Shown here: piece after piece, positions 2,296 to 27,757 of the stretch
How the letters are laid out: each line of letters opens with the position of its first letter
Position numbering within the stretch: position 1 is the first letter of the stretch
Source: a virus
Lineage: Duplodnaviria > Caudoviricetes
Strand: one strand, 5' to 3'
Virus record (IMG/VR): IMGVR_UViG_3300037483_000750
Span: 6,940-70,939 of that record
DNA length: 64,000 nucleotides
Notes under the pieces: model-generated
Databases searched by the model: none
What the model was told of the DNA's origin: nothing
The model's input: only the letters and a program-made list of their open reading frames with translations
Made by a program: the position numbers and the translations under genes

Positions 2296-3374
2296 CAGCA
2301 TGCCCACAGGGTGCAGCCGAACCAGTGCATCAGCGCGTCGGCCTGGTCAAACTCTGTCCCGTACAGCTCCATGTTGAACGCTGGCACCACGACACTCGCG
2401 CCGCCTGGCGTCGTCCAGAAGTCCGTGAAGTCGGTGCCCAAGCTGGCCGTCACGACATCGGCTCCGGGCAGCTCCCTCAGCCTCCAGATGTTGTCGGCGA
2501 GGGTCCGGCCGGGTGCGTCCCACAACACGTATTGCCCCGCCCAGGTGTAGAGGTCGAGGTAATCGCCCAATGACAGCTTGCCCAATAGCTGGCTCGGGTG
2601 CCATTGTTCTTTCATCTCCCGGATGACCTCGAGTTCTCTCCGGTTCCGGTCAAGGTCACCGATCGACACCTGCCGGCCCCGCACATAGCAGAGCAGTTCG
2701 TTGCCCATCATGTGGTAGAGCCTCCCTGCCTTCCAGGTGCGCCAGTCTCCGCCCTGGCCGTCGGTTCCATTGTAGGTGCCGCAGAAGTCCGTGTAGTCCT
2801 GCCCCGGCACGATGTCCAGCCCTCCAAGCGCGTCCGTGGCTGCGATGAATCCGGGCATGGTGGTCGTCAGCACGGGCCCGTCAACCTCGACCCCGAAGTT
2901 GTAGCGGACTGTCCCGCGCACGCACTCCGCCCCACCGCGATACCACGCGGCATTGATTCGGTCGAACGCCTCGCGTGGCACCGTGTCGAGGTCCTGCTCC
3001 ATGGCGTATTCTCCCGGGAGTTCGACTTCGGCACAGGCAATCGGGAGGTACAGGTCCCGCGGGAGAGCGACCATCACCAGTCTCGCCGGCATCTCCCACT
3101 CCTCGGGCCATGTCACCATCGATACGATGATGAAGACGTCCGTTCGTATCCCGAAGGAGTTGCGTTCGGGGTACTGCGGGTCGTAGTCCGTTCCCAGCAG
3201 GACACCGGTAAAGACCTCCGGGCCCGGCTCTGGTGTCGGCGTCGCCGTGGGTTCCACCGGCTGGAACGGCGTGATCGTGGGCCATTCGGCGGTTGGTTCT
3301 GGCTTGCCAGCTGGCGCGCAGGCGGCCAAGGCCAGCGTCAGGCAAGCGGTCAGGACTGCTCCGTGAAATCGCAT
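2295..3374 (-). CDS. LCP (LytR-CpsA-Psr) family lipoprotein
   Basis: Lipobox LAAC; motifs LLGTD, RTDVFIIV, ALPRDLYL, RINAAW, LCYVRGR, GDLDRNRRE match the LCP conserved Arg/Asp pattern; AGGAGG RBS. Confidence 0.9.
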   Translation of the reverse strand: MRFHGAVLTACLTLALAACAPAGKPEPTAEWPTITPFQPVEPTATPTPEPGPEVFTGVLLGTDYDPQYPERNSFGIRTDVFIIVSMVTWPEEWEMPARLVMVALPRDLYLPIACAEVELPGEYAMEQDLDTVPREAFDRINAAWYRGGAECVRGTVRYNFGVEVDGPVLTTTMPGFIAATDALGGLDIVPGQDYTDFCGTYNGTDGQGGDWRTWKAGRLYHMMGNELLCYVRGRQVSIGDLDRNRRELEVIREMKEQWHPSQLLGKLSLGDYLDLYTWAGQYVLWDAPGRTLADNIWRLRELPGADVVTASLGTDFTDFWTTPGGASVVVPAFNMELYGTEFDQADALMHWFGCTLWAC

Positions 3375-3496
3375 CGTGTGCCTCCTTACGGCTTGTGGGT
3401 TTCCCCAGGGGGGATAGGTGAGGTTTGCAACTCTGGCCAGCCTACCGCGGGTGGCCAGTGCAATCAAGGGGTGTCGGTCCGTCTGTCACGGGAGCA

Positions 3497-12882: not shown

Positions 12883-14394
12883 TTACATCTCGCCTACGAT
12901 GACAATCCCGTCGCTTCCGCCTCCGTCCAGGCCCGTCGCCACCAGCAGGTGCGGGTCCGACACACAGGCCGCGATGGCCGTGTAGCGGTCGCTGTCCTGG
13001 ATGACGCCGCTGTCCTGGGGCAGGACAATCCAGTCGTAGCCGCCGTTGAAGCTCGCCAGTAGGCGGCCCTTCGGCGCTGATGTCGTGTGGCTCATGTAGA
13101 AGATGCTGTCGCTGGCCTTCTTGAGTTCCTGAACGACGCCGCTCCCGCTGCCCGGGAATGCCTTCTCGGTCCAGCTCTCACCAGCATCGAGCGTGTAGTA
13201 CAGCCGGCCCGCCGCCGAACCGACCAGCCACTCATTCTTGCTCTTGACGAGGACCGTGTTCAGGTGCACGCCAGCGCCGGTCGGCCGGACGGTTGCCGCC
13301 TGCCAGGTCGTCCCGTTCTTGGTGTAGATGACCGTCCCGCTGTTCCCGACCGCCACGGCGAAGCTCGAACTGAGGGCGTCGATGGCGTTCAGGTTGTCCA
13401 CCGTCGCTGCGCCGGCGTCCTGCACCGTGACGCCTGCCGTCGCGTCCTCGAGCAGGTAGACATAGCCGCCCGCTCCGACGACCCAGGCCTTCGTCCCTAG
13501 GCTGAAGATGTCCCGTGGTCCCTTGCCAGCGACGTATCCGGTGGCCACCTCGGTGAAGGCCGGGTCGCCCACTCCGGCCTTGAAGTCTTCCTTGAGCGCG
13601 TAGTGCTGGGAAAGGCTGGCCGTGCTGACTACCACTAGGTAGTCCCCGACGCAGGCAAGCGCGTTCGGCTCCTCGGCCGCGGCCAGGGTGTCAATGTCGT
13701 GGGCGTACCAGTTCAGGCCCCCGTCGATGGAGTAGACGATGTCGGCTGGGGTCGAGGGGCTTCCGCCGGCGGCCTTGGTCAGGATGTAGACGCGCTGGCA
13801 GCCGTCGCTCTCGTTTGTGCAGTCCCCGCAGCTGATGTCGTCGCAGATGACGACGTCGATGCCCTCGTTGGTCATGATGTCTTCGGCCTTCTCGCCGAAG
13901 CCGAGCGGGATGATGTCGTAGATGAGCTTGGCGCTCACCTCGATTCGCTCGTTGACCACCGCCTGGTCGGCGCTTCCCAGGGCACCGAGGTCATCCGCTT
14001 CCCAGTTCACGATCAGCGCATCCTCCAGGATGAGGTCCTTGAGGAAGGTGTTGAACTGGTCCGGCGGGTCGCACACTCCGAAGTGGACCTGGATGTCCAC
14101 GGCGCATCCCTTGTTCGCCAGCCGGAGCATGGTCGAACGCAGGTCGGCGGCGTAGCGGCCCTCGAGCGTGATGCTCGCCCGCTCGTCCTCGCCCCGAATG
14201 CGACCAATCTCCCGGAACTTTCCGTAGTTCAGTGGGTCCGGGGCCTCGATCTTCGTCACGTCTCCGAAGCCCTTGCTCGGGGCCTGTGCCCGCATGAAGC
14301 TCTCGTAGCTGGGCTTGTGGTCCACCCGCGCCCGGTTCTCGATGAGGAACACGCGGGAGTTGCCGGTCTGAGCTGCAATCATCTCTTCAGTCAT
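12883..14394 (-). CDS. Major tail tube protein with C-terminal Asp-box beta-propeller
   Basis: Position before the chaperones. The N-terminal ~190 aa look tube-like. The C-terminal part has Asp-box repeats YSIDGGLNW, YTKNGTTW, YTLDAGESW, ASFNGGYDW. Confidence 0.65.
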   Translation of the reverse strand: MTEEMIAAQTGNSRVFLIENRARVDHKPSYESFMRAQAPSKGFGDVTKIEAPDPLNYGKFREIGRIRGEDERASITLEGRYAADLRSTMLRLANKGCAVDIQVHFGVCDPPDQFNTFLKDLILEDALIVNWEADDLGALGSADQAVVNERIEVSAKLIYDIIPLGFGEKAEDIMTNEGIDVVICDDISCGDCTNESDGCQRVYILTKAAGGSPSTPADIVYSIDGGLNWYAHDIDTLAAAEEPNALACVGDYLVVVSTASLSQHYALKEDFKAGVGDPAFTEVATGYVAGKGPRDIFSLGTKAWVVGAGGYVYLLEDATAGVTVQDAGAATVDNLNAIDALSSSFAVAVGNSGTVIYTKNGTTWQAATVRPTGAGVHLNTVLVKSKNEWLVGSAAGRLYYTLDAGESWTEKAFPGSGSGVVQELKKASDSIFYMSHTTSAPKGRLLASFNGGYDWIVLPQDSGVIQDSDRYTAIAACVSDPHLLVATGLDGGGSDGIVIVGEM

Positions 14395-14404
14395 GGTCGT
14401 CTCC

Positions 14405-14698
14405 TTATGCGGCTACGGCCGCGTCCTTCTGACGGTAGAGTTCGATGACCCGCCTGTGCAGGCAGGTCTTCACGGCGCTCGTCACGCCGCGCTGTTCCCG
14501 CTGCACGTCCTGCCAAGTGAAAAGTCCCTGGTCCACTAGGGCGTTGTGGAGTTCCCGCTTCACGTCCTCCCAATCGACCCCGTTCAGGTCTGGCGGCATC
14601 ACCGGAATGCCCTTCTCCGCCATGCTCTCCGGGTCCCCGTCCCGCAGCATCGCCGCGTGCCGAAAGCCTGCCCGGTCGGTCCAGGTAGCTATCTTCAC
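14405..14698 (-). CDS. Small neck-region hypothetical protein
   Basis: ATGA overlap with the upstream gene; lies in the structural operon. Confidence 0.55.
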   Translation of the reverse strand: MKIATWTDRAGFRHAAMLRDGDPESMAEKGIPVMPPDLNGVDWEDVKRELHNALVDQGLFTWQDVQREQRGVTSAVKTCLHRRVIELYRQKDAAVAA

Positions 14699-15984
14699 AC
14701 CACCGCCACCTTCGGTCGACGCTCCGCCGTTCCAAACACCGCCCGCCAGGCCTCAACCTGGCCCCGCTTCGTCCCAAAGGGGTTCCGGACAATCTCGTCG
14801 GTCATGTAGTAGCTGTCGCCGCCGGTCGCACTCCGGCTCAGGTCCGTGCGCCAATCCTGGACCAGTGCCTGAACGCTCTTGCAGCTGCACAGCGGGCGCT
14901 CGAGCTTGCAAACCGTCAGCATCGCCACCAGCCGGGCCCACTCCTCCGGCATCGGGTCGCAGGTCTCGCCGCTCAGGAACTCGTCGCTCTGGTCTCCGCT
15001 CTGGTACCACAGCTTCACCAGCTCCGGCTCCCGGCAGACTGTCCACGCGTCCCGTGTCCAGACCCCATTGGTCTCGTCGTAGCTCGCGGGAGTCGGAACG
15101 ACGAAGCCTCCATGGAGGTCCCGGACGTGAACGCACCCATCCTGGGTCGTCAGCTCGCAGGCCGTGCAACCCGTTCCGCTGCACTGCGAACAGATGCCGT
15201 TGATGAACGTCGATGGGCTGGGCTCCCAAAAGAACTGCGCGCTCGGTTGCGTGAAGTCCGTGTATTCCCGGTAGACATCCACCGTGGTCTCGTAGTTCGC
15301 GCTCGCAGCCAAGTCGAGAGCGGTGGTGCCTTGGTCCGTTGGGAACTTCTCCCACAGCGAAGGCTTGATGAGCTGCCAGCTGTAGAAGGTCAGGACCGTG
15401 TTCACCCCGCTGAAGACCTTGGCGATAGCCGGTCGAATCTCCCACTCCGGCTTGCCGCTCTTACCAGCGAAGTAGGCCTTCACCTCGCAGGCGTCCGTCA
15501 CTGCCGCCGGCGTCGGCACCGTGATGGTGGCCATCTCGCTGTAGGTGTCGCCGTCCGGGTCGCTCCGCACAACGGCTGAGCCGGCCTGAATGACTGTCGT
15601 CGCCCGTCGGCCAGCCTGGAGAAACTTCGCATGCCGCAGCTTGATGGACTTCGGCATTCCTCGGATGTCGTAGCCGCTTCCCCGAAGCTCCCTGCGGTAG
15701 GGCTTTGGGAATCGGTAGACCTCCTCCACCTCGTACTTCGGGCCGGGCCAGAACCCCAGCTGGCTCGCCAGCTCGCGCTCGCTGTCGCGGATGGCCCGGG
15801 CGATGGTCTCCCGGCTGACGCGGTCCACGGCCTGCCAATCGTACTGGTGGATGACCATCCCGCAGGAACCGGACGAAGGCATGATGCTCCCGCCGGCCGC
15901 CCCGTTGAAGTGCGCCGGATTCAGCCCGATGATGGCTGCGAAGCGGTCCAGGGGCAGTATCGTCCGGATGCTTGCTCTAGCCAT
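14695..15984 (-). CDS. Putative head-tail adaptor/connector
   Basis: 429 aa between the capsid region and tail tube; internal CSQCSGTGCTAC Zn motif. Synteny-based call. Confidence 0.5.
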   Translation of the reverse strand: MARASIRTILPLDRFAAIIGLNPAHFNGAAGGSIMPSSGSCGMVIHQYDWQAVDRVSRETIARAIRDSERELASQLGFWPGPKYEVEEVYRFPKPYRRELRGSGYDIRGMPKSIKLRHAKFLQAGRRATTVIQAGSAVVRSDPDGDTYSEMATITVPTPAAVTDACEVKAYFAGKSGKPEWEIRPAIAKVFSGVNTVLTFYSWQLIKPSLWEKFPTDQGTTALDLAASANYETTVDVYREYTDFTQPSAQFFWEPSPSTFINGICSQCSGTGCTACELTTQDGCVHVRDLHGGFVVPTPASYDETNGVWTRDAWTVCREPELVKLWYQSGDQSDEFLSGETCDPMPEEWARLVAMLTVCKLERPLCSCKSVQALVQDWRTDLSRSATGGDSYYMTDEIVRNPFGTKRGQVEAWRAVFGTAERRPKVAVV

Positions 15985-16282: not shown

Positions 16283-16299
16283 TTCACCTCCCAAAACAA

Positions 16300-16380
16300 A
16301 GCGCCGGACCTGCTGGGGCCGTCGGAGCCCGCTATCCCAAGGGGGGAGGGAAGCGGACGGCCCTGCGTCAGTCCGGCGCT
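16300..16380 (-). ncRNA. Long irregular hairpin, candidate structured RNA
   Basis: Nested inverted repeats 16300-16309/16371-16380, 16316-16323/16356-16363 and 16330-16338/16348-16355; loop UCCCCCCUU on the transcribed strand. Confidence 0.45.
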
Positions 16381-16438
16381 GGCTCTATTGTCGCACGCGG
16401 TCAGTCTGGCCGCAAGCGTCTATTTGGGGCAACTTACA

Positions 16439-16514
16439 TGGTGGCGTGGGGCAGACTCGAACTGCCGGTCTCCTGGTTATGGGCCAGGCGAGGACGCCGC
16501 TCCTCCACCACGCT
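16439..16514 (-). tRNA. tRNA-Met(CAT), initiator (fMet)-type
   Basis: 76-nt cloverleaf: acceptor AGCGTGG/CCACGCC with a 1x72 mismatch, A11-U24 D-stem pair, anticodon arm CCTGG-CCCATAA-CCAGG, T-loop TTCGAGT, encoded CCA. Confidence 0.9.
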
Positions 16515-19380
16515 ACGCTTCTTTCCTGCTCCTTCGTCTCGGCTTTGCCTCAGGTGGCTTTGCCCAGGCGATGTCATCGTTTGTCGTCGCTGCCGCTTCC
16601 GTGGTCTCGGCCGCCGTCTCAGCTAGGACAACAGGCGGCTCAACCGGCTTGACCGGTTCCGGGGGCGGGGCCGCCGGGGCAGTCGCAACCGGGACAATCT
16701 CCAGCGGCTGGAACAGATGGGGCTGAGCGGCGACGTCGTCCCGATGGACCAGGAAGGTCTCCCCGCCGCCTCGGTATCCGTAGTTGGTCCTGGTCGCCAC
16801 TCCGATGACGCCGTGAACCCCCTGGTTCGGGTGGACATACTTCGCCATCACGTATTGCTCATCGGCCATTGCGGCCTCCTTGCCGTTCGCTGGGGCTGCC
16901 GTCTCTGCCCAGGCCGCCGCCGGCGGCGGCTGGATTGTCTTCTGCCCGGCGCAGTTGCATCCCACGGTCTGAATCTCCTTGTACTTCTTCCTCAGGTATT
17001 CTACAAGCGCAGGCCAGTCCTGTAAACCGGTTTCACGTCTGGTTCCAGTGTAAAACCGGTAGCACAGCAGTTCCTTCTCGAGCCGGACATAGCAGCGCCC
17101 GGCCCTGGCCATGCGCCAGTGGTAGTCGACGTCCTCCCAGCTGACCAAGCTCTCATCGAAGCCCCCGATGCCGTCGTGCCAGGCGGAAGGCACCAAGCAC
17201 GTCACGTTGGCCCACAGGTAGGGAGGCCAGTCCTCCGGCTGCCGCTGGGCCCGCTCGGGTTCGTATTCCGCCGCCCGGTAGCCAATGAAGGCTTCCCCGC
17301 CCTCCCACTGATACATCCTCTCCTGGAGTTCCCGGGCCAGCTTGGTTGGGTCATCGACGTGCGCCCTTCCGACGTAGTCGCTGTAGACGATGGCCCCGCT
17401 GGCCGCCCATCCCTGGAGCATGTCCGAGAGGGCGTCCGGGTGCAGATAGTCGTCGGCGTCCAGGAACAGCAGGAATGGAGCCCGGGCCCTGGTTCTTCCG
17501 AGGTTCCTCGCCGCGCCCGCGCCCAGCCGCTTGCCGTTGTGGACCAACCAGCGGACGTATGGATACGCCTTGCGCCATGGCTTCAGGTCCTCCTCGTCCA
17601 TCGCTCCGTCAACGACAACAATCGCCTCCCACTTCCGGAACGATTGCGCCTCGAGGCTATCGACGGCATCTACCAGCAGGCCTTCATGTCCGGGTCCCAC
17701 AGGGATGATGACACTCACCAGTGGCTCGTCGTACTGGCGAGCGGCGTGGCTCATCCGCTTCGGGGTCGCCTGGCTCGCAATCGGGTGCTGGTTATCCACC
17801 ACCCACGGGTGCCAACGGAGCCAATCCACCTCCTTGTAGTCCGTCGAACCGGTCACGCCTCCGCTCAACCAGCTGTAGACGAACAGCGGTTCGGCCGTCG
17901 CCCGCCGCGCACCCCATCCGTAGGCCCCTGACCGGGTCCAGAACTCGGCATCTTCCGCCCCGGCCCCCTTCGGCGCATACCGCTGGCGGAAGCCTCCGAG
18001 CCGTGCCCACATCTCCCGCCGGAACACGCAGCAGGTAGGCACCTGGTTCTGCCGGCGGAGCTGGGCATCGTAGTTCCAATCGCCCGGCCACTGGCTGACC
18101 CCCTGGCTCCCGTCAGGCTTTATCCAGCGCAGGCCGGTGTAGGCTATGCCCAGCGTCCGGTCCTGTTCGAGCACCTGCACGCACTCCCGCAAGAAGGTCG
18201 GCTCGATGGCATCGTCGGCATCCAGGCAACAGATGTACTTCGTCCTGGCCTCGGCTATGCCCCGGTTGCGCGCGTGTGCGACACCTCGATTCTCCTGGCG
18301 GATGTATCGCACGCGGGGGTCTTTGAACGCCTCGACCGCCCGGGCGGTTGCTCCGTCGTCCGGGCTTCCGTCGTCGACGACGATGACCGCCTCGAGCAAC
18401 GGCCAGTTCTGCGCCAACACGCTTTCGATCGCCCGACCGACCTTCTCAGCGTACTTGTAGCTCGGGATGATGACCGAGACACTGGCGGTCTCCTGTCTGG
18501 CCGCCCCAGCGAACTCGTAAAGAGCCAGAACTTGCCTGGCTGCCCGGGCCCAAGTGTGCGCCCGGGCCATCTCCCGACCATTGTCTCCAAGCGTCTTCCG
18601 GTGCGTCAAGCAGTAGCTCAGGCCTTCGGCCAAGTCATCCTTGTCTCCCGGCCTGGCCAGGTAGCCATTGACTCCGTGCTTGACCAGTTCGAGGTTCCCG
18701 CCGTTGGCAAAGCCGAGGACCGGGACGCCGGCCGCCATCGCCTCTAGCGTCCCAATGCCGAAGGTCTCTTTGGTCGTGGCGAGGTAGACCGAGCTGGCCT
18801 TGAGCAATTCCCGCATCTCATCGTGCGGCCGCAACCCGCAGGCCCGCACGTTGCCCGGCGGATTGTCTGGCAGGTAGGTTGTCAGGAAAGCCTGGTCCGG
18901 GTGTGCCAGCGCCAACCACCGAATGGGGTCCGGGTCGCACACGTCTCCGACCCGGTTCTTGTTCCACAGCACCCAGCCCCGGTACTCGCCCGGCTGCTGC
19001 CAATCATCGAAGTCGATTCCGTGCCCGATAACCGTCGGGTCGACCCGCATCTCCCGTTGCAGGCTCTCCGCCACCCATCGGCTCGGCACGCTGATCGCCA
19101 GTGCTGCCCGCAGGCTGGCTACCACAGCGGCGTTGCTTCTCCACTCCCACGGGTGAGCGTTGTAATCCGCCGTCCAGTACAGCCCGTGGCAGTGGGCCAC
19201 ATCGGCCCCTTCGGCCATGCCGGCGTGGACGGCGACCAAATCGTAGTTCCTCGCCCCTGGCTCGAGCAGCTCCACCCCCAACTTCGGTAGCTCTCGGAAG
19301 TAGGCTTCCACCACGCGCCGAATGCCGCTCTCGTCCTTCTCAGCGAACTGGCTGACGTGCGGCTTCATCAGCACGCGCAT
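16513..19380 (-). CDS. Multidomain glycosyltransferase (GT4-like + GT2 + GT2) with C-terminal extension
   Basis: GT-B motif ETFGIGTLEAMAAGVPV; two GT-A domains (SVIIPSY...DDGSPD...CLDADD and SVIIPVG...FLDADD...WEDVDY); Pro/Ala-rich tail. Confidence 0.92.
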   Translation of the reverse strand: MRVLMKPHVSQFAEKDESGIRRVVEAYFRELPKLGVELLEPGARNYDLVAVHAGMAEGADVAHCHGLYWTADYNAHPWEWRSNAAVVASLRAALAISVPSRWVAESLQREMRVDPTVIGHGIDFDDWQQPGEYRGWVLWNKNRVGDVCDPDPIRWLALAHPDQAFLTTYLPDNPPGNVRACGLRPHDEMRELLKASSVYLATTKETFGIGTLEAMAAGVPVLGFANGGNLELVKHGVNGYLARPGDKDDLAEGLSYCLTHRKTLGDNGREMARAHTWARAARQVLALYEFAGAARQETASVSVIIPSYKYAEKVGRAIESVLAQNWPLLEAVIVVDDGSPDDGATARAVEAFKDPRVRYIRQENRGVAHARNRGIAEARTKYICCLDADDAIEPTFLRECVQVLEQDRTLGIAYTGLRWIKPDGSQGVSQWPGDWNYDAQLRRQNQVPTCCVFRREMWARLGGFRQRYAPKGAGAEDAEFWTRSGAYGWGARRATAEPLFVYSWLSGGVTGSTDYKEVDWLRWHPWVVDNQHPIASQATPKRMSHAARQYDEPLVSVIIPVGPGHEGLLVDAVDSLEAQSFRKWEAIVVVDGAMDEEDLKPWRKAYPYVRWLVHNGKRLGAGAARNLGRTRARAPFLLFLDADDYLHPDALSDMLQGWAASGAIVYSDYVGRAHVDDPTKLARELQERMYQWEGGEAFIGYRAAEYEPERAQRQPEDWPPYLWANVTCLVPSAWHDGIGGFDESLVSWEDVDYHWRMARAGRCYVRLEKELLCYRFYTGTRRETGLQDWPALVEYLRKKYKEIQTVGCNCAGQKTIQPPPAAAWAETAAPANGKEAAMADEQYVMAKYVHPNQGVHGVIGVATRTNYGYRGGGETFLVHRDDVAAQPHLFQPLEIVPVATAPAAPPPEPVKPVEPPVVLAETAAETTEAAATTNDDIAWAKPPEAKPRRRSRKEA

Positions 19381-19381
19381 C

Positions 19382-19831
19382 TCAGGTTTCCTTCCTCTCG
19401 AAGCGGAACCCGCAGCGCGGGAAAGAAGCCATCTCCGATGGGTGAACCGGCCAGATGCGGCAGATGGCCGGGAACCTCATCGGGTCCGAGAACACGGTGC
19501 AACGGTCGTCCCGCAAAAGCCGGCAGGGCTCCGCTTCGTAGGTCACCTCCAGCGGCTTGTACCACCACCACAGCCCCATCGCTTCGATGACCGCCCAGCC
19601 CTCCCAGGCGGAATAGTCGTCGGCCCCCTTCTCCTCGCTGGGCGGATGGTTCGCGCTCGCCGTCGCCCGCTGGAACCTGATGCGAGCCTTGCAGCAGTCC
19701 GCGCATCCATTGCAGGCCCCGGACCTCTCGTACTCGACCAGCTTCCCGCCCTCCACGACCCACACGGGCCTGATGGTCTCGGGAACGCCGAGCAGCTCTG
19801 CTTCTCCCTCGTTTGGCAGCGGGGGGTTCAT
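19382..19831 (-). CDS. CxxCxxCC (YkgJ-like) cysteine-cluster protein
   Basis: CNGCADCC...PCRLL...RCTVF...PAICRIWP motif; ATGA overlap at 19828-19831. Confidence 0.8.
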   Translation of the reverse strand: MNPPLPNEGEAELLGVPETIRPVWVVEGGKLVEYERSGACNGCADCCKARIRFQRATASANHPPSEEKGADDYSAWEGWAVIEAMGLWWWYKPLEVTYEAEPCRLLRDDRCTVFSDPMRFPAICRIWPVHPSEMASFPRCGFRFERKET

Positions 19832-20415
19832 ACTCGGAAGGTCACTAATGTTCGCACGACGCTGACCATCTCGTACTTCCCCACCAGTAGGGCCTCCACC
19901 GCCTGGTCGACTCCGGGCCATGGCTTTGGAAACGGTGCGTCTGGCAGTTCTTGGCCTCCGAACACCTCTTCCTTGTTGAAGTCGTGCACCGCCAGCAGTC
20001 CGCCCGGCTTGAGGTTCGGTATCCACGCCTCGATGTCTCCCGCGCAGCCTTCGTAGCTGTGGTCCCCGTCAACGAACACCATGTCCACCGGGTCGCCCAG
20101 CCAGTTGCTCCCGAATTCCTTGCTGTCGCCGTGTATCTGCTGCACCTGATCGTCCCACAGACCGGCATCCCGTAGCACCTTCTCCTCAGCTACGAGGCAA
20201 CCGAGTGGACTCTCCGCCCGCTGCTTGTCCACCGTGAACAACCACAAGTCCGGTCGGCTCTCGCGGAATGCCAGCCCGCTGGTCCCCGCCCCTGCCCCAA
20301 TGTTCACAACCACCGGATTGTCTGGAAGCATCCTGGCGAGCCTCTGCAGCTCGACCAGCTCCTCCACGAACAGGTACTTGAACGCCGCTCGCAGGCTCTC
20401 GGCCGTGTGAATCAT
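19828..20415 (-). CDS. Class I SAM-dependent methyltransferase (Methyltransf_24-like)
   Basis: NIGAGAGTS, FVDGDHSYEG and LKPGGLLAVHDF motifs. Confidence 0.88.
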   Translation of the reverse strand: MIHTAESLRAAFKYLFVEELVELQRLARMLPDNPVVVNIGAGAGTSGLAFRESRPDLWLFTVDKQRAESPLGCLVAEEKVLRDAGLWDDQVQQIHGDSKEFGSNWLGDPVDMVFVDGDHSYEGCAGDIEAWIPNLKPGGLLAVHDFNKEEVFGGQELPDAPFPKPWPGVDQAVEALLVGKYEMVSVVRTLVTFRV

Positions 20416-20948
20416 TAGCGTCTCAACCTAGCTTCCCGCTCCCGCTCTTTCCGTTCGTGGGACCTCTTGCCAGCGGCCATCAACTTGGCCTCGGTCCACT
20501 TCGTCAGCTTCGGGGGAATCCATGGCCGGAGCTTCCCCAGCAGTGCCCAGGCCTTGAAGAACCACTGTGATGGTTTCGTCTCGACCATTCGTAGCCGGCT
20601 GTGCCGTTCGATGACGGCCGCACCATAGGCCACCGCGCGGCTCATCTGTGGGAATGCTTTCCTCAGCCACTTGTAATTGCGGCTCCCATCCGGGAAGTGC
20701 AGTTCGACGCCGGCCTGATAGTCCTTCCGTCCTGTCGCTGGGTTGAACCTCTTCCGGCTGACCAGCATCCTCGCCCGGGCTGCCTGCTGCATCCTGTTGG
20801 CGAGTTGCGCCACGGCTGCCTGGACTTCTGGCCCAGCTCTCACACCCACACCCGGCTCTGCTGTGCTCTTGGCCACCAGTTGCGGCCGCAACTTCTTCAC
20901 CGCATCAAGAGCTGCCTGGACTTCTGGCGGGGGGGGCTGTGTGTTCAT
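20415..20948 (-). CDS. Basic hypothetical protein
   Basis: ATGA overlap with the DegT-family stop codon. Confidence 0.55.
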   Translation of the reverse strand: MNTQPPPPEVQAALDAVKKLRPQLVAKSTAEPGVGVRAGPEVQAAVAQLANRMQQAARARMLVSRKRFNPATGRKDYQAGVELHFPDGSRNYKWLRKAFPQMSRAVAYGAAVIERHSRLRMVETKPSQWFFKAWALLGKLRPWIPPKLTKWTEAKLMAAGKRSHERKEREREARLRR

Positions 20949-22141
20949 CGTCCACTCCGGAAATAATCTTCGAAGCAATCGGCCATGTAGTCGATATCAT
21001 CCGGGCCGAGGTCCTGGTGCACGCCGACATAGAACCCCCGCTCGTTGACCACTTGGGCGTGCGGGTAATCCTCCTCGAACACAAACTCCCGGAAGACCGG
21101 CTGGTTCGTCAGGGGCAGCATGTCACGCGTCTCGATGTCCCGCTCGTTCAGCCAGGCTGTCAGGCGTCCCTTCTCCGGCCGGCCACAGACGATAGGGAAC
21201 ATCATCCAGCTATGGCTATTGCCCGGTCGCTCCTTCGGTAGCGTCAGGTCGGCGTCGGCGTGCTCATTGGCGATGCTCAGCCGGGCCCGCAGATGATTGG
21301 CATTCCGCCGGCGGACATTCACCATGGTGCGCCAGTCCTCCAGCTGCGCTAGGCCCAGCGCCGCCTCCAGCTCCGTGATGCGGTAGCTGTGGCCGCTGAA
21401 CGCAAAGCGGAATGACCGACCGATAACCGGCCGCGGGGAAAAGTTCTCGTCCATGTTGAGCTCGTCCGGGTCAAGCCCGTGGTTCACCAGACAGCGCATC
21501 CGTTTGGCTAACTCCGGGTCGTTGGTCGTTGCCATCCCGCCCACGCCCGTCGTAATCAGGTGCGCGTTGTAAGTCGAGAAGCACCCTACCTCGCCCCAAC
21601 TTCCGACGACCGCCCCGTAGTGCGAGGCGAACATGGCCTCGCAGCAGTCCTCGATGGTCATCAGCCCGTACAGGCGGGCAAGATATAGCAGGTCCGTCAT
21701 GTCCGCTGCCTGCCCGAACAGGTGCACCGGGAGAATCGCCCGGGCCTTCGGGTGGTCGGGCAAGAGCGCCTCCACACCGAAGGGGTCCATGCCGTAGTAG
21801 TCGTCGATGTCCACGAACACGGGCTTCATCCGGTTGTGCAGCACAATGTTGGCCGTAGCGACGAACGTCACGGCCGGCACCAGGACTTCGTCGCCGTCTT
21901 CCCAGCCCTGGAGTTCCTTGAGCGCCTGCAGCGCCACCTGCAGGGCACTTGTCCCGCTGTTGGCCAGCACGCCGAAGTGGCAACCGTGCAGTTCGGCTAT
22001 CTGGCGCTCGAAATCCATGCTCATGGGCCCGTAGCTGATATGGCCGCTTTCGAGCACCTGGCGCACCAGCTCATGGGTCTTCTCGGTCGCCCGGAACGTC
22101 CCCGTCCCGATGTGCCGTCGCGCGCGGACGAGCGTGTTCAC
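20945..22141 (-). CDS. DegT/DnrJ/EryC1/StrS-family PLP enzyme, His-type (ColD/E1-like sugar 3-dehydratase)
   Basis: NSGTSAL, TFVATAN, PVHLFG and IEDCCEA motifs. FSTYNAHLITTGVGG has His at the position of the usual Schiff-base Lys. Confidence 0.9.
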   Translation of the reverse strand: MNTLVRARRHIGTGTFRATEKTHELVRQVLESGHISYGPMSMDFERQIAELHGCHFGVLANSGTSALQVALQALKELQGWEDGDEVLVPAVTFVATANIVLHNRMKPVFVDIDDYYGMDPFGVEALLPDHPKARAILPVHLFGQAADMTDLLYLARLYGLMTIEDCCEAMFASHYGAVVGSWGEVGCFSTYNAHLITTGVGGMATTNDPELAKRMRCLVNHGLDPDELNMDENFSPRPVIGRSFRFAFSGHSYRITELEAALGLAQLEDWRTMVNVRRRNANHLRARLSIANEHADADLTLPKERPGNSHSWMMFPIVCGRPEKGRLTAWLNERDIETRDMLPLTNQPVFREFVFEEDYPHAQVVNERGFYVGVHQDLGPDDIDYMADCFEDYFRSGR

Positions 22142-22338
22142 TCCGAATCTCCGAGGTCGTAGGCCAGCTCCGCCAACCGGAATGGCCGGCTGTTGCCGTC
22201 TTCGAATAGGACACGGACCAGCGCCGCCTGCCCCTTCCCGTGGGTTTCGGGGTACTCGGAGACGATGACGCCCTTCGTCCCCGGTGGGCAGTCGTTGTAG
22301 ATGGCCCTGATGACCCTGACCTTCTTGCCGATCGTCAT
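22138..22338 (-). CDS. Small SH3/KOW-like protein
   Basis: IGKKVRV...PPGTKGVIV...VRVLFEDG pattern; coupled by overlaps on both sides. Confidence 0.5.
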   Translation of the reverse strand: MTIGKKVRVIRAIYNDCPPGTKGVIVSEYPETHGKGQAALVRVLFEDGNSRPFRLAELAYDLGDSE

Positions 22339-22562
22339 TCCTTCAACCTCGCTTTCAACTTCACCATGGCGTCCCAACCCTGCACCTCGACGGATAGGGT
22401 CAGAACCCCCGGCGTCTCGAGCACGTCTGCTTCGATCTGGTCGGCTATCGCGCGCAACCCTCTCGCTGCCGCTCGTTTGACGGCCTCGGCGGCAGGTTCA
22501 TCACGCCTCAATTCCATCGCCACGAGGCGCTCCCATGGCAACAGCTGCCTCACATTCCCCAT
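22335..22562 (-). CDS. Hypothetical protein
   Basis: ATGA overlap with the downstream gene. Confidence 0.5.
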   Translation of the reverse strand: MGNVRQLLPWERLVAMELRRDEPAAEAVKRAAARGLRAIADQIEADVLETPGVLTLSVEVQGWDAMVKLKARLKE

Positions 22563-23266
22563 GGCTTCAGCAGGCCTTTCGTCTTGAGGTCCTGGCGGTC
22601 CTCTTCCAGCAGTTCGTCCAGCAGGAGAGTCCCCGGCTCTCCGCCCCGGAATGCTAGGGTGTGATGCACGGGCCAATTTGCCGTTCCGAGCACTAGGGCT
22701 TCCTCGCGCAGGGCGGCCAATCGTCCGGTGCCGTCGAGTTCAATCTGCCATGGCGTCTCGTCAGCCCTCATAACTCGCAGCAGATGCCGACGTCGCCACA
22801 GCGCCGTCATCAAGCTCATGTGGTACTGGCTCTCAGGGTCACTCCACACGAGGCTCAGCCGTCCGCAGGCCCCATAGGGTCTCGCCCCGCCGGCATACTG
22901 GCGGTCCCCGGTCAGGTCCATCCGGGCGACGTAGTCGAACTGCTGCATGTAGTCGGCCAGCATCCCCACCGCTTCGGTGTCGACGTCTTGCGTCAGCCAG
23001 TAATCCTCGAGCATCAGCACGAACACTTCGTGCGGCTGCTCGACGATGAACTTCCCGGCGGCATTGCTCCACTTTCCCACCGGGTAGTCTTCGAAGCGTC
23101 CGATGCTGCGGAAGTGGAAGTTACCTGGCAAGGGGAAACTCGGCGGCGTGAAGCCCCCTACGAGCACTTCGGGGTTCGGCTTCCAGTGTCGGTTCAGCAG
23201 GAATGCGAACGGGCGGAGAGCTTCGATATAGCGGTCGCTGGTGAGGACCAGGACGGGTGGCTGCAT
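22550..23266 (-). CDS. GT-A-fold glycosyltransferase-like protein
   Basis: N-terminal VLVLTSDRY strand and an acidic LMLEDYWL motif typical of divergent GT-A proteins. Confidence 0.6.
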   Translation of the reverse strand: MQPPVLVLTSDRYIEALRPFAFLLNRHWKPNPEVLVGGFTPPSFPLPGNFHFRSIGRFEDYPVGKWSNAAGKFIVEQPHEVFVLMLEDYWLTQDVDTEAVGMLADYMQQFDYVARMDLTGDRQYAGGARPYGACGRLSLVWSDPESQYHMSLMTALWRRRHLLRVMRADETPWQIELDGTGRLAALREEALVLGTANWPVHHTLAFRGGEPGTLLLDELLEEDRQDLKTKGLLKPWGM

Positions 23267-23302
23267 ATCCCTTACGTCCTCTACGGTGCCCTCATTGTAG
23301 CC

Positions 23303-23337
23303 GAAAAGAAGAGGGCCGGTCAACTGACCGGCCCTCT
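23303..23337 (-). terminator. Rho-independent terminator after the major capsid gene
   Basis: 12-bp stem AGAGGGCCGGTC/GACCGGCCCTCT followed by TCTTTTC on the minus strand. Confidence 0.8.
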
Positions 23338-23358: not shown

Positions 23359-24819
23359 TTACCAGACGTGGCTGGTTGCCGGAGCTCCCCGCAGGGACAC
23401 GCCGCCGTCGGCGAAGTACGGGTCACTCGGGTCCGGGCTCCGCAGGTGCTGCAGCGGCTGGTACCGGACAAGGTCGATGCGGCCGGCCAGCTGCGGCGTC
23501 CGCAGCACGACCCGCCACTCGGTCTTGGCGCTCAGCTTGTAGCACCACTTGACCTGCTCGACGGCCCAGCTGTACATGCCGCCATCGGTCCAGAACCGCT
23601 CCAGGCCCCGGAGCAGTGCCGTGTCGGAGGCTCCGGCGGCGTAATCGACGTGCTCGATGTACGTCACCGGGAAGCCGCCCGTGATGCTCAGGGGGAGCAT
23701 GTAAATCGAGCTGGCATACTGGCCCGGGAGCAGGTTGGCATCGTTGATGTTCGTGTTCTCCTGGATGCCCGTGTCGGTGATGACCCGGTACCGGTTGCCG
23801 TTGACATCGATGTAGCGGCCGGCGCGCATGGCGTCGCGCTGGGCCACGTTCTCCCGACCGTCGATGAAGACGCTCGAGCCAGCACCGATGACCGCGGTCG
23901 CACAGCGGCTCGTGTTGTACTGGCACGGCCAGACTTCGCTCAGGGTGAACCACAGCTCCGGCCGCATGACGAACACCCACTCCACCGGGTCCAGGCCCAT
24001 GCGCTCGGCGTTGTAGCGCAGGTAGAACTCCAGCATCCCCATGTACTCGACGATGCTGCGGGCCGTCCCATCGACCGGGCTGCGGGCGAAGCTCTTGACG
24101 TCCGAGTCCAGCGCGGCGCAGGCGATATTCGTCTCGGCATCCACCTGGCCGGTGGCGATCTGCCGGTCCAGGCCGGGCGGCTCCTTGTAGCCCCCGCCGA
24201 TGTTGTTGTTGGCCGGGTTGCCCCGCCACAACAGCCGGCTGTTCAGCCGCTCGAGCTGCACGCCCACCCCGACCATCTCGGCCATCGTCACGATGTTCAG
24301 GACGTCGGCCTCGCTCAGTTCGGAGGGCTTCATCTTGTCCAGGCCGAGCAAGCGACCGCGCAGGACTAGGTCGGTCGTGATTCCGCCCCGCAACTGGAGC
24401 ATGACCTTGTCCCACTCAATCGTGTTCGTGTCTCGCTGGACACGCCCGAACTGAGCGGTCAGGTTGCAGCCCTTCATGTAGCCGCTGGGGGCATCCGAGC
24501 ATGGGTTCGCCGGCTCGTTCCCGGTCGTCCCCGTGAAGCCCGTGATCGTGGCGTAGCGCGGCTGCTCAATCACGCTCGGGAAGTGCGGAAGCTCCGCCAG
24601 CAACCCGTGCGGACGCACGTGGGCCGTGATGACATCCGGCTCCAGTCCGGGGGTGCTGAACACGCCCCCAGCCCCGAACAGCAAGCCGGCCGTGTTGACC
24701 AGTGCGGCTTCCTTGTTGCCAACTGCCTTGATGCTGCTCCCGCCCTTCCCCGCCAGAGCACCCATGATGGCCTGCTGGCCTTCGAGAAGTTCGAGGACCT
24801 TCTCCATGTAATCGTCCAC
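23359..24819 (-). CDS. Major capsid protein
   Basis: 486 aa directly after the protease/scaffold gene; AGGAGG RBS; followed by a terminator. Mostly synteny-based. Confidence 0.75.
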   Translation of the reverse strand: MDDYMEKVLELLEGQQAIMGALAGKGGSSIKAVGNKEAALVNTAGLLFGAGGVFSTPGLEPDVITAHVRPHGLLAELPHFPSVIEQPRYATITGFTGTTGNEPANPCSDAPSGYMKGCNLTAQFGRVQRDTNTIEWDKVMLQLRGGITTDLVLRGRLLGLDKMKPSELSEADVLNIVTMAEMVGVGVQLERLNSRLLWRGNPANNNIGGGYKEPPGLDRQIATGQVDAETNIACAALDSDVKSFARSPVDGTARSIVEYMGMLEFYLRYNAERMGLDPVEWVFVMRPELWFTLSEVWPCQYNTSRCATAVIGAGSSVFIDGRENVAQRDAMRAGRYIDVNGNRYRVITDTGIQENTNINDANLLPGQYASSIYMLPLSITGGFPVTYIEHVDYAAGASDTALLRGLERFWTDGGMYSWAVEQVKWCYKLSAKTEWRVVLRTPQLAGRIDLVRYQPLQHLRSPDPSDPYFADGGVSLRGAPATSHVW

Positions 24820-24868: not shown

Positions 24869-25549
24869 TTACGCCGCCGGCACCTTCGGCGCGCCGCTGT
24901 TCAGGGCCTTGATGCGCCCGATCAGCGGGATACCGCTCGGCCCGGCGTCCTCGGTCTCGGTCTCCGCTGGGGCGGCACGGCCAAGACTGGTCCGGCCGTC
25001 CACGCGGGTCTTTTCGGTTCCGATGACGCTGGTCGCAATCGACTTCCGGCTGGCCCGAGGCGTCATCATCTCGGTTTCACCGGCTGCCTGCAGCAGCTTG
25101 TTCAGCCCGGTCTCGATGCCGGTCAGGCGGGTGTTCACGCTCTCCGCCACGGCCTTCATCGCCGTCCCGAACTCGGACCGCAGTGCGGCCACCTCGCCGC
25201 CCTCGCCCGGCGTCGGCTCCGGCGCGGGTTCGGGTTCCGTAGGCTCGACGAGCTCCGCCAGGATGGGCTCGAGCGCCTTGGCATCCGCTCCCTTGGCCTT
25301 CGCTGCCGCCACGGCCAGACCTGCCTTCTCGTCCGCCAGACCGGCCTTGACAGCCGCCTGCAGGGCGGCCTTCAAAGCGGCGTCCTTGGTCGATGCGATG
25401 ATCGCCTCCACCTTCGGGACCAAGGTCGCCTTGAAGGAGACGCCGGCCTCCTCGAGTTCCTTCGTCCGTCCCTCGCCCAGCTGAACGACCAGGTCAGCGA
25501 GTTCCTCGCCGCCAATGGCCTTCAGTGCATCACGCTGCTTGGTATCCAC
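24869..25549 (-). CDS. Nested in-frame scaffolding protein (internal start)
   Basis: GGAGG (25562-25558) 8 nt before an in-frame GTG, right after the protease domain; gives MDTKQRDALKAIGG... Confidence 0.5.
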   Translation of the reverse strand: MDTKQRDALKAIGGEELADLVVQLGEGRTKELEEAGVSFKATLVPKVEAIIASTKDAALKAALQAAVKAGLADEKAGLAVAAAKAKGADAKALEPILAELVEPTEPEPAPEPTPGEGGEVAALRSEFGTAMKAVAESVNTRLTGIETGLNKLLQAAGETEMMTPRASRKSIATSVIGTEKTRVDGRTSLGRAAPAETETEDAGPSGIPLIGRIKALNSGAPKVPAA

Positions 25550-27679
25550 TTCGAAAACCTCCATTCCTAGGTTGTACGGGTTCGCGGCTACGTGCCCTGG
25601 CAACACGGTGGTTTCTTGCTTCTCGAACCAATCGTATACGCCATCCCTCCTGTCGCCGGCCTTGTAGGTGAACCCGTGCGACGTCCCCCAGCCTTCCGGG
25701 GCGATGATAGGGTGCCCGTCCGGGTGCTCCTTGAAGAACTCTGCGAAGGTTTCCCCGATCGGTGTCTCATCGAAAGGTCCCGCCTCAACCAGGAACCTCC
25801 CGCTCATTCCCTGCCAGGCGATGCTCCCGAACTTCGTGCCCGGAAGATGCCAGAACCAGAAGTCGCCCTTGCTCTCCTCGTCCGCGTGCCGGTCGACGTA
25901 TTCCTCGATGGCCTTGGCCGTGAACGTTTCCTTGTCCCGGTCCTCGAAGGAATTGGTCGTCCAGGTCAACAGCCACGGTTTCCCATCCGGGCCCTCGAAC
26001 ACCTTCATGCCAGCCTTGGTCGGCGTCGGCTCTCCCTTGTAGTCAGCCCAACCCAGCACGTCTCCGAGGTCCTTCATCAGCTTTCGAATGCTGCGCTGGA
26101 AGTCCTTCAGCACGCCGAGCTTGTCACCCCTGACTCGCCGGCCAGCCTTCGCGCCGGGCTTCTTCATCCCGGCCACGCCCCACAGGTAATCGGGGATGTC
26201 GTCGTCGTCGACGTCCATGCCCCGGTACTTCGCAATGAGCTTCCGAGCAGCGCCTTGCTTCGCTCCTCCGGGCAGGTCAACCTTCTGGCCTCGGTAACCC
26301 TTCGGGCCCAGCGCCGCCGCCGCCCGGCCGAGTTGCGGAACGGTCACCTTTCCTGGGCTTTCCTCGATGCGGAGCTTCCATTCGCTTGGGGCGTCCTTGT
26401 CCGGCGCGTACAGATAGGCACTGGCCTTGAATTCGTCGCCGTCCTCGGTCTTGGTCGTGGCCTTGACTGCCACCAGCGTCTGCCCCACTGCGACCTTCGC
26501 CTTCGCCTTCATGGCTTCGGCCATCATCACCGGCCGCCACTCGTCGTAACGCTTCACCTCGACCCAAGTCTCCGGCGGGTCGAACTCGAGGCCGGCCTCG
26601 GTCTCACCGTATCCGACTAGGTAGTTCTTGCCGTCAAGCTCGATGACGAACCCACCTTCGTCGAAGTAGGTGTCCACAATCCACGGATAGAGCTGAATGT
26701 TCCCTCCGCCGGGAACCTCCTTGACGAAATCGAATGCGGCTTCGAACGCTCGGCGCAGCTCCTGGGTCTGCCCCTCGTCCGACTCCCGTCCGGCCAACCG
26801 GGCTTTCTCGGAGGCCTCGCTGGCGTGCAGGGCTGCAATCTGGTCGTTGGCCATGTCTTCCGTGTCGTGGCAACCCAGCGCCTTCCCGGTCTTCTTCCCG
26901 TCCGCGCCCTTCTTGTAGACGCAGGTCTTGCCGTCTTCCATGATCTTCATGTAGGGCATGCCATCAGCTCCTTCGCTGAAGACTCCCCCGGCCCCCGTAA
27001 GCAGGCCGGCCGTGTTGCCTTCGGCCACCTTGGCCGCCAATGCCATCGCGGCCTCACCGTCGATTGCCCTTCCCGCGAGCTGGCCAACTTCCCCCTCGAG
27101 CTTTTCCCGGAAAGCCTCTATCGCTGCCGACACCGCGCTCGACAGTGAGATGCGTTCCTCCTTCGTCAGGTAGCCAGCCGCCAGCAAGTCGTCGGCCGCC
27201 TGGGTGTAGCCCTTGTGAATGCGGCTCTCGAGAAAGTCGGCCACGTTCGCCATTGGGCCGTGGCTCTCGTGACCGATATCCCCTACCTCCACCACCTGGT
27301 CCGCGTGGTGTTCCATCGGTCCCGGTTCTTTCCCTGTCGTGGTCTCTTGCGGGAACGTATTCTTGACATCCGCCAGGGCCATCGGCGCATCGAAGCGTTT
27401 GATGCTCTTGAACTTCTGGAGGTACAGGGTCTTCAGACCGGGCCACCATTCGTCGGCTTCCTCGCTTCTCACCTGGTGCTCTGCAAACCGGGTTTCGAGG
27501 TTCTCCCTGGCCAGCTCCTCCGCCGGCTCCAATTCCACTTCGGCATAGGCCTTCGTTCCGCTGGTGATGAGAAAGCTCGCATCCGTCGGCAGCGGAATCT
27601 TTGCCAGCATCGCCGTGCGCTTCCCCGTCCATACCAGGAAAGGGTGGGGCTCGGGGAGGTCGAGGCTGAATTGCTTCAT
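24869..27679 (-). CDS. Capsid maturation protease/scaffold polyprotein with extra N-terminal domains
   Basis: AGGAGA RBS with ATG at 27679. HK97-protease-like block (TWTTNSFEDRDKETF...WFWH...GWGTSHGF...QETTVLP..AANP), Ala/Glu coiled-coil C-terminus, ASCH-like N-terminus. Confidence 0.75.
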   Translation of the reverse strand: MKQFSLDLPEPHPFLVWTGKRTAMLAKIPLPTDASFLITSGTKAYAEVELEPAEELARENLETRFAEHQVRSEEADEWWPGLKTLYLQKFKSIKRFDAPMALADVKNTFPQETTTGKEPGPMEHHADQVVEVGDIGHESHGPMANVADFLESRIHKGYTQAADDLLAAGYLTKEERISLSSAVSAAIEAFREKLEGEVGQLAGRAIDGEAAMALAAKVAEGNTAGLLTGAGGVFSEGADGMPYMKIMEDGKTCVYKKGADGKKTGKALGCHDTEDMANDQIAALHASEASEKARLAGRESDEGQTQELRRAFEAAFDFVKEVPGGGNIQLYPWIVDTYFDEGGFVIELDGKNYLVGYGETEAGLEFDPPETWVEVKRYDEWRPVMMAEAMKAKAKVAVGQTLVAVKATTKTEDGDEFKASAYLYAPDKDAPSEWKLRIEESPGKVTVPQLGRAAAALGPKGYRGQKVDLPGGAKQGAARKLIAKYRGMDVDDDDIPDYLWGVAGMKKPGAKAGRRVRGDKLGVLKDFQRSIRKLMKDLGDVLGWADYKGEPTPTKAGMKVFEGPDGKPWLLTWTTNSFEDRDKETFTAKAIEEYVDRHADEESKGDFWFWHLPGTKFGSIAWQGMSGRFLVEAGPFDETPIGETFAEFFKEHPDGHPIIAPEGWGTSHGFTYKAGDRRDGVYDWFEKQETTVLPGHVAANPYNLGMEVFEVDTKQRDALKAIGGEELADLVVQLGEGRTKELEEAGVSFKATLVPKVEAIIASTKDAALKAALQAAVKAGLADEKAGLAVAAAKAKGADAKALEPILAELVEPTEPEPAPEPTPGEGGEVAALRSEFGTAMKAVAESVNTRLTGIETGLNKLLQAAGETEMMTPRASRKSIATSVIGTEKTRVDGRTSLGRAAPAETETEDAGPSGIPLIGRIKALNSGAPKVPAA

Positions 27680-27757
27680 GTCTCCTAACGCAAAACCGGG
27701 CACGACCGCCGTGTCTGGCGGACGCGCCCGGTAGGAGCGCCATAGCTTGAGCCTATT

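Follow-up and report, generated by a model that had tools for sequence, protein, structure and literature searches.

Giant viruses encode both sugar-synthesis genes and glycosyltransferases for their own particle, as for the fibril sugars of Mimivirus and the capsid glycans of the chlorovirus PBCV-1. In bacteria, the O-glycosylation islands of flagellin and pilin combine a conserved transferase gene beside the subunit gene with strain-variable tailoring genes that diversify the glycan. For tailed phages, virion glycosylation has to our knowledge been shown experimentally for mycobacteriophages alone, whose virion glycans shield the particles against antibodies; Freeman et al. (2023, Cell Host Microbe) reportedly described virion O-glycosylation in Che8, Corndog and Myrna. 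Three reports (PMC11600133, PMC12619734, PMC12363180) locate the glycans at the C-terminal ends of the capsid and tail-tube subunits, and describe an O-methyltransferase beside three transferase genes in Corndog-type phages. Here we describe an operon of glycosyltransferase and sugar-tailoring genes located between the capsid and tail genes of a tailed phage from IMG/VR (record IMGVR_UViG_3300037483_000750). The window, by which we mean the whole stretch of 64,000 nucleotides that was analysed, corresponds to bases 6940–70939 of this 70,939 bp viral record, which carries direct terminal repeats and is a complete genome.

Glycosylation of the virion is the best reading of this operon, and we assign it a probability of about 0.5. 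In its favour we count the fixed place of the operon among the head and tail genes, its probably late and attenuated expression, the solubility of its enzymes and the mycobacteriophage precedent. An initial annotation of the window had proposed the same, and its overall interpretation is partly supported by the analysis that follows.

A fixed transferase gene and a hypervariable island

The operon spans positions 16513–23266 on the minus strand and is counted as nine open reading frames (ORFs), eight of which, from the gene of a 238-residue GT-A-fold protein through that of a 955-residue transferase, are enumerated in Table 1. All of the genes named in the initial annotation were recovered in place and on this strand, while three ORFs coding for 75 residues, 66 residues and a basic protein of 177 residues had escaped it. 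The successive gaps from the GT-A gene to the 955-residue gene are -13, -4, -4, -4, -1, -4 and +1 nt, which agrees with the coupling by stop/start overlaps that had been proposed; the ATG of the gene for a CxxCxxCC protein overlaps the stop codon of the methyltransferase gene. All of the enzymes are free of transmembrane segments, and four glycosyltransferase domains are encoded between the capsid and tail genes.

That the cluster truly lies between capsid and tail genes follows from the folds of the proteins on either side. The 482-residue protein encoded 92 nt upstream of the GT-A gene is predicted to be the major capsid protein because its AlphaFold2 (AF2) model, built with 34 homologues and having a predicted local distance difference test (pLDDT) of 73.6, matches HK97-fold capsids. 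The best Foldseek match is cyanophage Mic1 (E = 7.8e-10, probability 1.0), and SU10, HK97, T5 and others are found at E values up to 1e-7. Library searches gave no family match for this protein, and none of its more than 1321 metagenomic homologues is annotated. The G+C content at third codon positions (GC3) of its gene is 0.90, the maximum in the window. At the other end, the N-terminal 165 residues of a 503-residue protein resemble tail tube families in the Atlas structure search (TM 0.62–0.71 by row), and the GC3 of its gene is 0.88.

Two scans of IMG/VR, with a capsid profile and with a GT-A profile, provided about 120 loci, on which our description of synteny rests. Among the loci that show both genes, 47 distinct ones encode a homologue of the 955-residue protein downstream of the capsid gene and on the same strand, with capsid identities down to 33%. 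The order after the transferase in these relatives is a DUF1360 gene, a gene coding for 429 residues, the tail tube gene and the tape measure gene. Persistence of the cluster beside the capsid gene in related phages had been suggested as a check. It is borne out, as the gene order is found again in 47 distinct related viral loci, which rules out that the cluster arose from chance juxtaposition.

The capsid and transferase genes are separated by as little as 5 nt and as much as 11.4 kb (median 3.8 kb). Per 48 loci, the intervening stretch contains a GT-A gene in 33, a methyltransferase gene in 20, a DegT-family gene with histidine at the position of the catalytic lysine in 15 and a short-chain dehydrogenase/reductase (SDR) gene in 11. 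When mapped onto the capsid tree, the tailoring genes each require at least 10–11 gains or losses and the GT-A gene four, with the core transferase being present in every locus. Since the transferase is always present and the tailoring genes are often gained and lost, the 955-residue transferase is a core structural-module gene of a large uncultured phage lineage, the G+C content of which ranges from 49 to 65%, and the stretch between it and the capsid gene is a hypervariable sugar-tailoring island.

The capsid-to-transferase junction is an insertion hot spot. Besides the genes already mentioned, homing endonucleases, a sulfotransferase-like domain and a further methyltransferase are encoded in the islands of relatives, as is a C5 DNA methylase in one case. 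The SDR is Fcl-like and adjoins the GT-A gene; the best NCBIfam model was GDP-L-fucose (guanosine diphosphate-L-fucose) synthase for five of the seven tested, with scores under the cut-off. ColD has a ColC-like SDR of this type as its partner. In six loci (L002, 13388–14521; L012, L018, L026, L031 and L033) the sulfotransferase-like domain has a Methyltransf_24 domain fused to it or next to it, which hints at sulfated glycans in these relatives. The insertions include a LAGLIDADG gene (L003, 14104–14871), a GIY-YIG/T5orf172 gene (L004, 11838–12320) and the C5 DNA methylase gene (L002, 12149–13384).

Transferases and sugar-tailoring enzymes

The 955-residue protein indeed contains the three glycosyltransferase domains that had been proposed, with their acidic motifs kept. 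A GT4 domain (residues ∼1–290) is followed by two GT2 domains (∼300–540 and ∼555–780), a linker, a beta domain (∼836–897) and a stretch rich in Pro and Ala with a basic tail at its end. The EX7E motif and the two DXD motifs are conserved over the 47 homologues in the conservation profile. The best scores of the GT2 and GT4 domains are to transferases for exopolysaccharide, teichuronic acid and O-antigen, and the nearest solved relative is chondroitin synthase.

These similarities would also suit an operon that remodels a host envelope glycan such as O-antigen, teichoic acid or another wall polysaccharide. Such remodelling could mask the receptor late in infection, sparing the loss of progeny on debris or infected cells, or could exclude other phages. 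In line with this, 3,6-dideoxyhexoses are classic O-antigen sugars, a DUF1360 membrane protein is encoded behind the big transferase in most relatives and the phage itself has an LCP-family gene at 2295–3467. The island, however, is devoid of an initiating phosphoglycosyltransferase, a flippase, a polymerase and an ABC exporter, and the enzymes have no membrane anchor. Moreover, the core transferase is fixed across a lineage whose spread in G+C content probably reflects differing hosts, and from its location downstream of the capsid terminator it should be expressed late, a poor time for rebuilding a cell surface. We therefore consider an envelope target rather unlikely.

The beta domain behind the third transferase domain is about 60 residues long. 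Pfam, PHROG and PDB sequences gave no match for it, and the Atlas search gave weak SH3-like leads only. It is present in 42 of the 47 homologues. An in-frame ATG (16869) and a Shine–Dalgarno-like AAGGAGG motif precede it (16869–16881), and both are kept in the window and in the eight closest relatives (L001, L002, L101, L019, L005, L006, L007 and L073). This arrangement suggests a nested small protein that is made both free and fused to the transferase, and a stand-alone protein of 146 residues combining the beta domain with a helix–hairpin–helix (HhH) domain does exist. The gene moreover occupies the slot that is usual for decoration genes. The 955-residue protein, or its separate piece with the beta domain and basic tail, might then be a capsid- or DNA-associated structural protein, with the glycan being placed on it or on a non-virion target. 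Set against this, five homologues keep all three transferase domains and lack the beta domain, and no similarity to known decoration proteins was found; we regard such a structural role as improbable.

The DegT-family protein adopts the DegT/DnrJ/EryC1 fold, with 355 of the 360 profile positions of PF01041 being covered. In pairwise alignments its YNAH motif coincides with GNK in perosamine synthetase and with YPAH in the E1 dehydrase (His220; PDB entry 3bcx), so that a histidine stands at the position of the catalytic lysine, as in the PMP (pyridoxamine 5'-phosphate)-dependent sugar 3-dehydratases of the ColD/E1 type. All 17 homologues from the lineage keep this histidine, as do six others on large, unrelated viral contigs (23 viral sequences). 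A counterpart of the Cys-rich [2Fe–2S] insert of E1 was not found in the alignment with 3bcx. The protein reaches 179 bits against the NCBIfam model for RfbH (cut-off 423) and 209 bits against that for PseC (cut-off 423.5), and about 113–147 bits against solved enzymes; it appears to be a divergent member of the family, as its scores fall under every NCBIfam cut-off.

Enzymes of the His type, as known from the chemistry of ColD and E1, are PMP-dependent 3-dehydratases that yield 3,6-dideoxy-4-keto sugars. Replacement of the catalytic lysine led us to set aside an aminotransferase function, and the histidine together with the missing Fe–S cysteines identifies the protein as a putative ColD-like NDP (nucleoside diphosphate)-4-keto-6-deoxyhexose 3-dehydratase of the 3,6-dideoxyhexose branch. 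The deoxy-sugar step of the initial annotation thereby gains a candidate enzyme. ColD, which acts with ColC in the colitose branch, shares the DegT/aspartate aminotransferase fold, the histidine in place of the Schiff-base lysine and the absence of Fe–S cysteines; the relatives of the present phage likewise pair their DegT enzyme with an Fcl/ColC-like SDR. With E1 (CDP-6-deoxy-L-threo-D-glycero-4-hexulose 3-dehydrase, where CDP is cytidine diphosphate) the histidine is shared, whereas the Fe–S cysteines belong to E1 only. The viral gene also differs from both in its setting, which is a structural module and not an O-antigen locus.

The methylation step that had been proposed likewise has a candidate in the class I S-adenosylmethionine (SAM) methyltransferase, which resembles cation-dependent O-methyltransferases and has PDB entry 6g7d and the putative O-methyltransferase Rv1220c as its nearest solved relatives. 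The CxxCxxCC protein of the YkgJ family was not found in any related locus, nor was a solved relative of it. DpdM, a phage protein resembling YkgJ, is a preQ1 methylase (bioRxiv 10.1101/2023.04.13.536721).

The 238-residue protein had been called GT-A-like, and its AF2 model (pLDDT 93.9; predicted template-modelling score 0.91) agrees. Foldseek against the PDB gives probabilities of 1.0 and TM scores of 0.5–0.57 to POMGnT1, B4GALNT1, SpsA, RmlT and TarP, and generic GT-A transferases are the sole matches in a viral library. The Rossmann-like fold is accompanied by an acidic, putatively metal-binding motif in which Glu87 and Asp88 lie behind a beta strand; it reads L-E-D, unlike the textbook DXD. 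Glu87, Asp88, Asp117 and Asp121 are invariant across 35 homologues. Pfam, NCBIfam and PHROG contain no described sequence family for this protein, its 266 metagenomic homologues are unannotated and there are zero matches in 50,697 GenBank phage records. Distant relatives with 22–27% identity occur on six contigs of 38–293 kb (L041, L043, L053, L056, L061 and L062), with His-type DegT enzymes and SDRs within a few kilobases. The pairing of the GT-A protein with a 3-dehydratase thus extends beyond the present lineage into unrelated, partly jumbo-sized viral contigs.

Flanking genes, transcription signals and genome setting

The features of the operon and its surroundings are collected in Table 1. 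Of the ORFs added to the operon, the 66-residue one is conserved solely in the closest relative, L001, at 78%, and the basic 177-residue protein has no match in Pfam, NCBIfam or PHROG.

Table 1. Features of the operon and of the adjoining head and tail genes, in window coordinates
Feature	Positions	Strand	Basis or remark
Major capsid protein (predicted), 482 aa from ATG	23359–24807	-	AF2 model and Foldseek; longest ORF 486 aa, to 24819
Terminator-like hairpin and T tract	23337–23310	-	12 bp stem, 9 G–C pairs; right behind capsid stop; consensus scan and sequence
Promoter-like TTGACC-18-TACAAT	23323–23294	-	Overlaps terminator-like hairpin (element span 23294–23337)
Orphan GT-A-fold glycosyltransferase, 238 aa	22550–23266	-	AF2 and Foldseek
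Small ORF, 75 aa	22335–22562	-	Overlaps GT-A stop by 13 nt and following start by 4 nt; sequence reading
Small ORF, 66 aa, weakly SH3-like	22138–22338	-	Pfam SH3_12, weak, under cut-off
DegT-family enzyme, 398 aa, His at catalytic Lys position	20945–22141	-	PF01041, 1.6e-83
Basic protein, 177 aa	20415–20948	-	Homologue in L001 only
Class I SAM methyltransferase, 195 aa, Methyltransf_24, cation-dependent O-methyltransferase-like	19828–20415	-	PF13578, 2.2e-15
CxxCxxCC (YkgJ-family) metal-cluster protein, 149 aa	19382–19831	-	PF03692, 25.7 bits (cut-off 23)
GT4+GT2+GT2 protein, 955 aa	16513–19380	-	Pfam; conservation profile
Orphan beta domain of 955 aa protein, ∼60 residues	16690–16875	-	C-terminal, behind third transferase domain
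DUF1360 membrane protein, 101 aa	15977–16282	-	PF07098, 1.7e-6; phrog_781
Conserved protein, 429 aa, head–tail connector position	14695–15984	-	Always between transferase/DUF1360 and tail tube gene
Tail tube protein, 503 aa, C-terminal BNR/Asp-box propeller	12883–14394	-	Atlas structure search; weak BNR matches
Tape measure gene	10005–12056	-	Downstream of tail tube gene

Upstream of the capsid gene and likewise on the minus strand, a protease/scaffold gene (24869–27703) codes for a head-assembly polyprotein of 944 residues. The spacer behind the capsid gene holds the overlapping terminator-like and promoter-like elements of Table 1. A terminator hairpin at such a position is the usual means of holding downstream genes below the level of the capsid message. 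From their sequence, we infer that the two elements would attenuate transcription past the abundant capsid message, restart it for the enzyme operon, or both.

Downstream of the big transferase lies an ORF-free gap of 230 nt (16283–16512); there is no other long one in this region of the operon. It is followed by the genes for the DUF1360 protein, the 429-residue protein, a 97-residue protein, the 503-residue tail tube protein, a 192-residue protein and the tape measure. The hydropathy of the DUF1360 protein peaks at 1.76 and 1.71, and its gene follows the big transferase in most relatives. Pfam, NCBIfam and PHROG give no match for the 429-residue protein. The C-terminal propeller of the tail tube protein consists of about 300 residues with BNR/Asp-box repeats, is kept in relatives and could bind glycans.

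The window has a G+C content of about 64% and the minus strand holds nearly all of its genes. No close relative by DNA was found among the 50,697 GenBank phage records, and neither was a close relative of the capsid protein among GenBank phages. Elsewhere in the genome (window positions 38233–38916 and 40000–62500) are encoded a GIY-YIG/NUMOD3 homing endonuclease, N6/N4 and C5 DNA methylases and DUF5131, DUF932, DUF6166, ParB_N and SWIM proteins; among 28 ORFs scanned in the rest of the genome no DNA polymerase was recognizable. Capsid relatives also turned up on seven short contigs of metagenome-assembled genomes (L127–L133), the labels of which name seven differing phyla or classes (Anaerolineales, Desulfuromonadales, Gammaproteobacteria, Saccharibacteria, Starkeya, Gemmatimonadota and Paceibacterota). 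They are most likely a binning artefact, i.e. mis-binned phage DNA, and therefore no host can be taken from these labels.

The acceptor and the wider meaning of the operon

The folds and families, the exchange of lysine for histidine, the structure of the operon and the synteny are shown by the results above, whereas we infer the nucleotide sugar, the order of the steps and, above all, the acceptor as follows. The operon would act late in infection and in the cytoplasm, as a glycosylation operon within the phage structural module. The ColD-like enzyme would strip the 3-hydroxyl group off a host-made NDP-4-keto-6-deoxyhexose, most likely GDP-4-keto-6-deoxymannose, and a host reductase of the Fcl/ColC type, which many relatives encode themselves, would complete the 3,6-dideoxyhexose. 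The GT4+GT2+GT2 enzyme would then make a short glycan on the capsid or tail tube protein, during or after assembly of that protein. To this glycan the orphan GT-A enzyme would attach the special sugar, and the methyltransferase, and perhaps the CxxCxxCC protein too, would decorate it. Swapping of the island among relatives would give differing glycans on differing phages of the lineage.

Several observations weigh against a virion acceptor. Neither the capsid nor the tail tube protein has a Ser/Thr-rich tract or a C-terminal tag, and the two do not share a conserved C-terminal motif; a D-G-G-G-S sequence in the tail tube was rejected as a shared motif as it is not conserved in tube homologues. 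The C-terminal tail of the capsid protein is disordered yet conserved (D-G-G-V-S, with a Trp further on), and a D/N-G-G-x-S/T motif is present in this tail in 32 of the 33 loci with a GT-A gene and in three of the 15 without one. We rejected this association as evidence and retain it as a lead, as the capsid tree offers two to four independent contrasts (sign test p = 1). Homology to the Che8 and Corndog transferases did not emerge either, in that tblastn of the 955-residue, GT-A and methyltransferase proteins against the 50,697 phage records returned no Mycobacterium phage among the named matches. Both the 4,6-dehydratase and the 4-reductase for the proposed sugar are absent from the window phage, and the pathway must therefore depend on host enzymes. 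Finally, the core transferase ends in an (HhH)2 domain in ten of ten relatives tested (HHH_5, up to 44.7 bits; L002 at 17200–17529, L101, L019, L073, L091, L015, L025, L038, L088 and L124) and in GRP-type/AT-hook-like basic tails in other relatives.

These C-termini, together with the basic tail in the window, suggest DNA binding and keep alive a reading in which the transferases glycosylate phage DNA, as a sugar hypermodification of bases that evades restriction. Known phage clusters of this kind likewise combine several GT-A/GT-B transferases with sugar-modifying enzymes (Lee et al. 2026, PMC13326640; Pyle et al., bioRxiv 10.1101/2023.12.21.572611); those of Pyle et al. attach mono- to trisaccharides to DNA and sometimes lie near structural genes. 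The C5 and N6/N4 DNA methylases and the ParB_N protein of the genome, and the C5 DNA methylase inside the island of one relative, would also fit. The known pathways, however, need a hydroxylated base, which either a ThyS homologue or an enzyme of the 5mYOX/TET type provides. These defining partners are missing from the complete genome, where PF00303, PF12851, PF13640 and PF13532 gave no match (the search with PF12851, Tet_JBP, had no positive control), as is any 2OG-Fe(II) oxygenase; related islands did not show them either. These absences speak against DNA glycosylation. In addition, the operon belongs to the late structural genes, away from replication genes, and HhH domains are also able to mediate protein contacts. 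We judge a DNA acceptor to be unlikely.

For glycosylation of the virion the mycobacteriophages remain the closest comparison. The two systems have in common phage-encoded soluble glycosyltransferases, an O-methyltransferase (in Corndog-type phages) and, as proposed here, capsid or tail-tube targets. In contrast to the mycobacteriophages, the transferases are here fused into one protein that is core to the structural module, a nucleotide-sugar 3-dehydratase is encoded as well and the island of tailoring genes is hypervariable; a beta domain and a DNA-binding-type tail extend the core enzyme, no C-terminal acceptor is recognized and glycosylation is a prediction. The claim that the cluster goes beyond a transferase-only cassette thus holds relative to this precedent, but not relative to the giant viruses, in which virus-encoded sugar synthesis is known. 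With these the present system shares nucleotide-sugar tailoring and transferases that are encoded by the virus and independent of the host glycosylation machinery, while their hosts are eukaryotic, their capsid folds are different, their enzymes are unrelated in sequence and their genes do not lie in a capsid-to-tail operon. The flagellin and pilin islands resemble it in pairing a conserved transferase beside a structural gene with a variable tailoring set; they serve a cellular appendage and not a virion, and their Maf-type and PglL-type enzymes are absent here. By analogy, the system may work like mycobacteriophage virion glycosylation without being related to it in sequence, add sugar synthesis as giant viruses do and be organized like a flagellin or O-antigen island.

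A more far-reaching proposal, which we put forward tentatively, is that this environmentally widespread lineage keeps a core tri-functional transferase in its head–tail operon and, beside it, a rapidly exchanged tailoring cassette that would be the viral equivalent of an O-antigen locus. Across the lineage, this cassette comprises the 3-dehydratase, the Fcl-like reductase, O-methyl- and sulfotransferases and the orphan GT-A enzyme. It would provide each phage with a specific rare-sugar coat, here a methylated 3,6-dideoxyhexose glycan, and the island would be under diversifying selection from whatever recognizes virions, which may include host surface lectins or receptors, grazers and defence systems.

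The analysis yields an orphan GT-A family of 266 members and a family of viral ColD-like enzymes, and the compact three-domain transferase could be of use in capsid glyco-engineering. If virion glycosylation is the function of the operon, the trait would be old and widespread in environmental phages and far more elaborate than in mycobacteriophages. Part of the rare sugar would come from the phage itself, and its relatives would swap tailoring genes as bacteria do their O-antigen genes, raising the question of what selects for diversity of virion glycans outside animal hosts.

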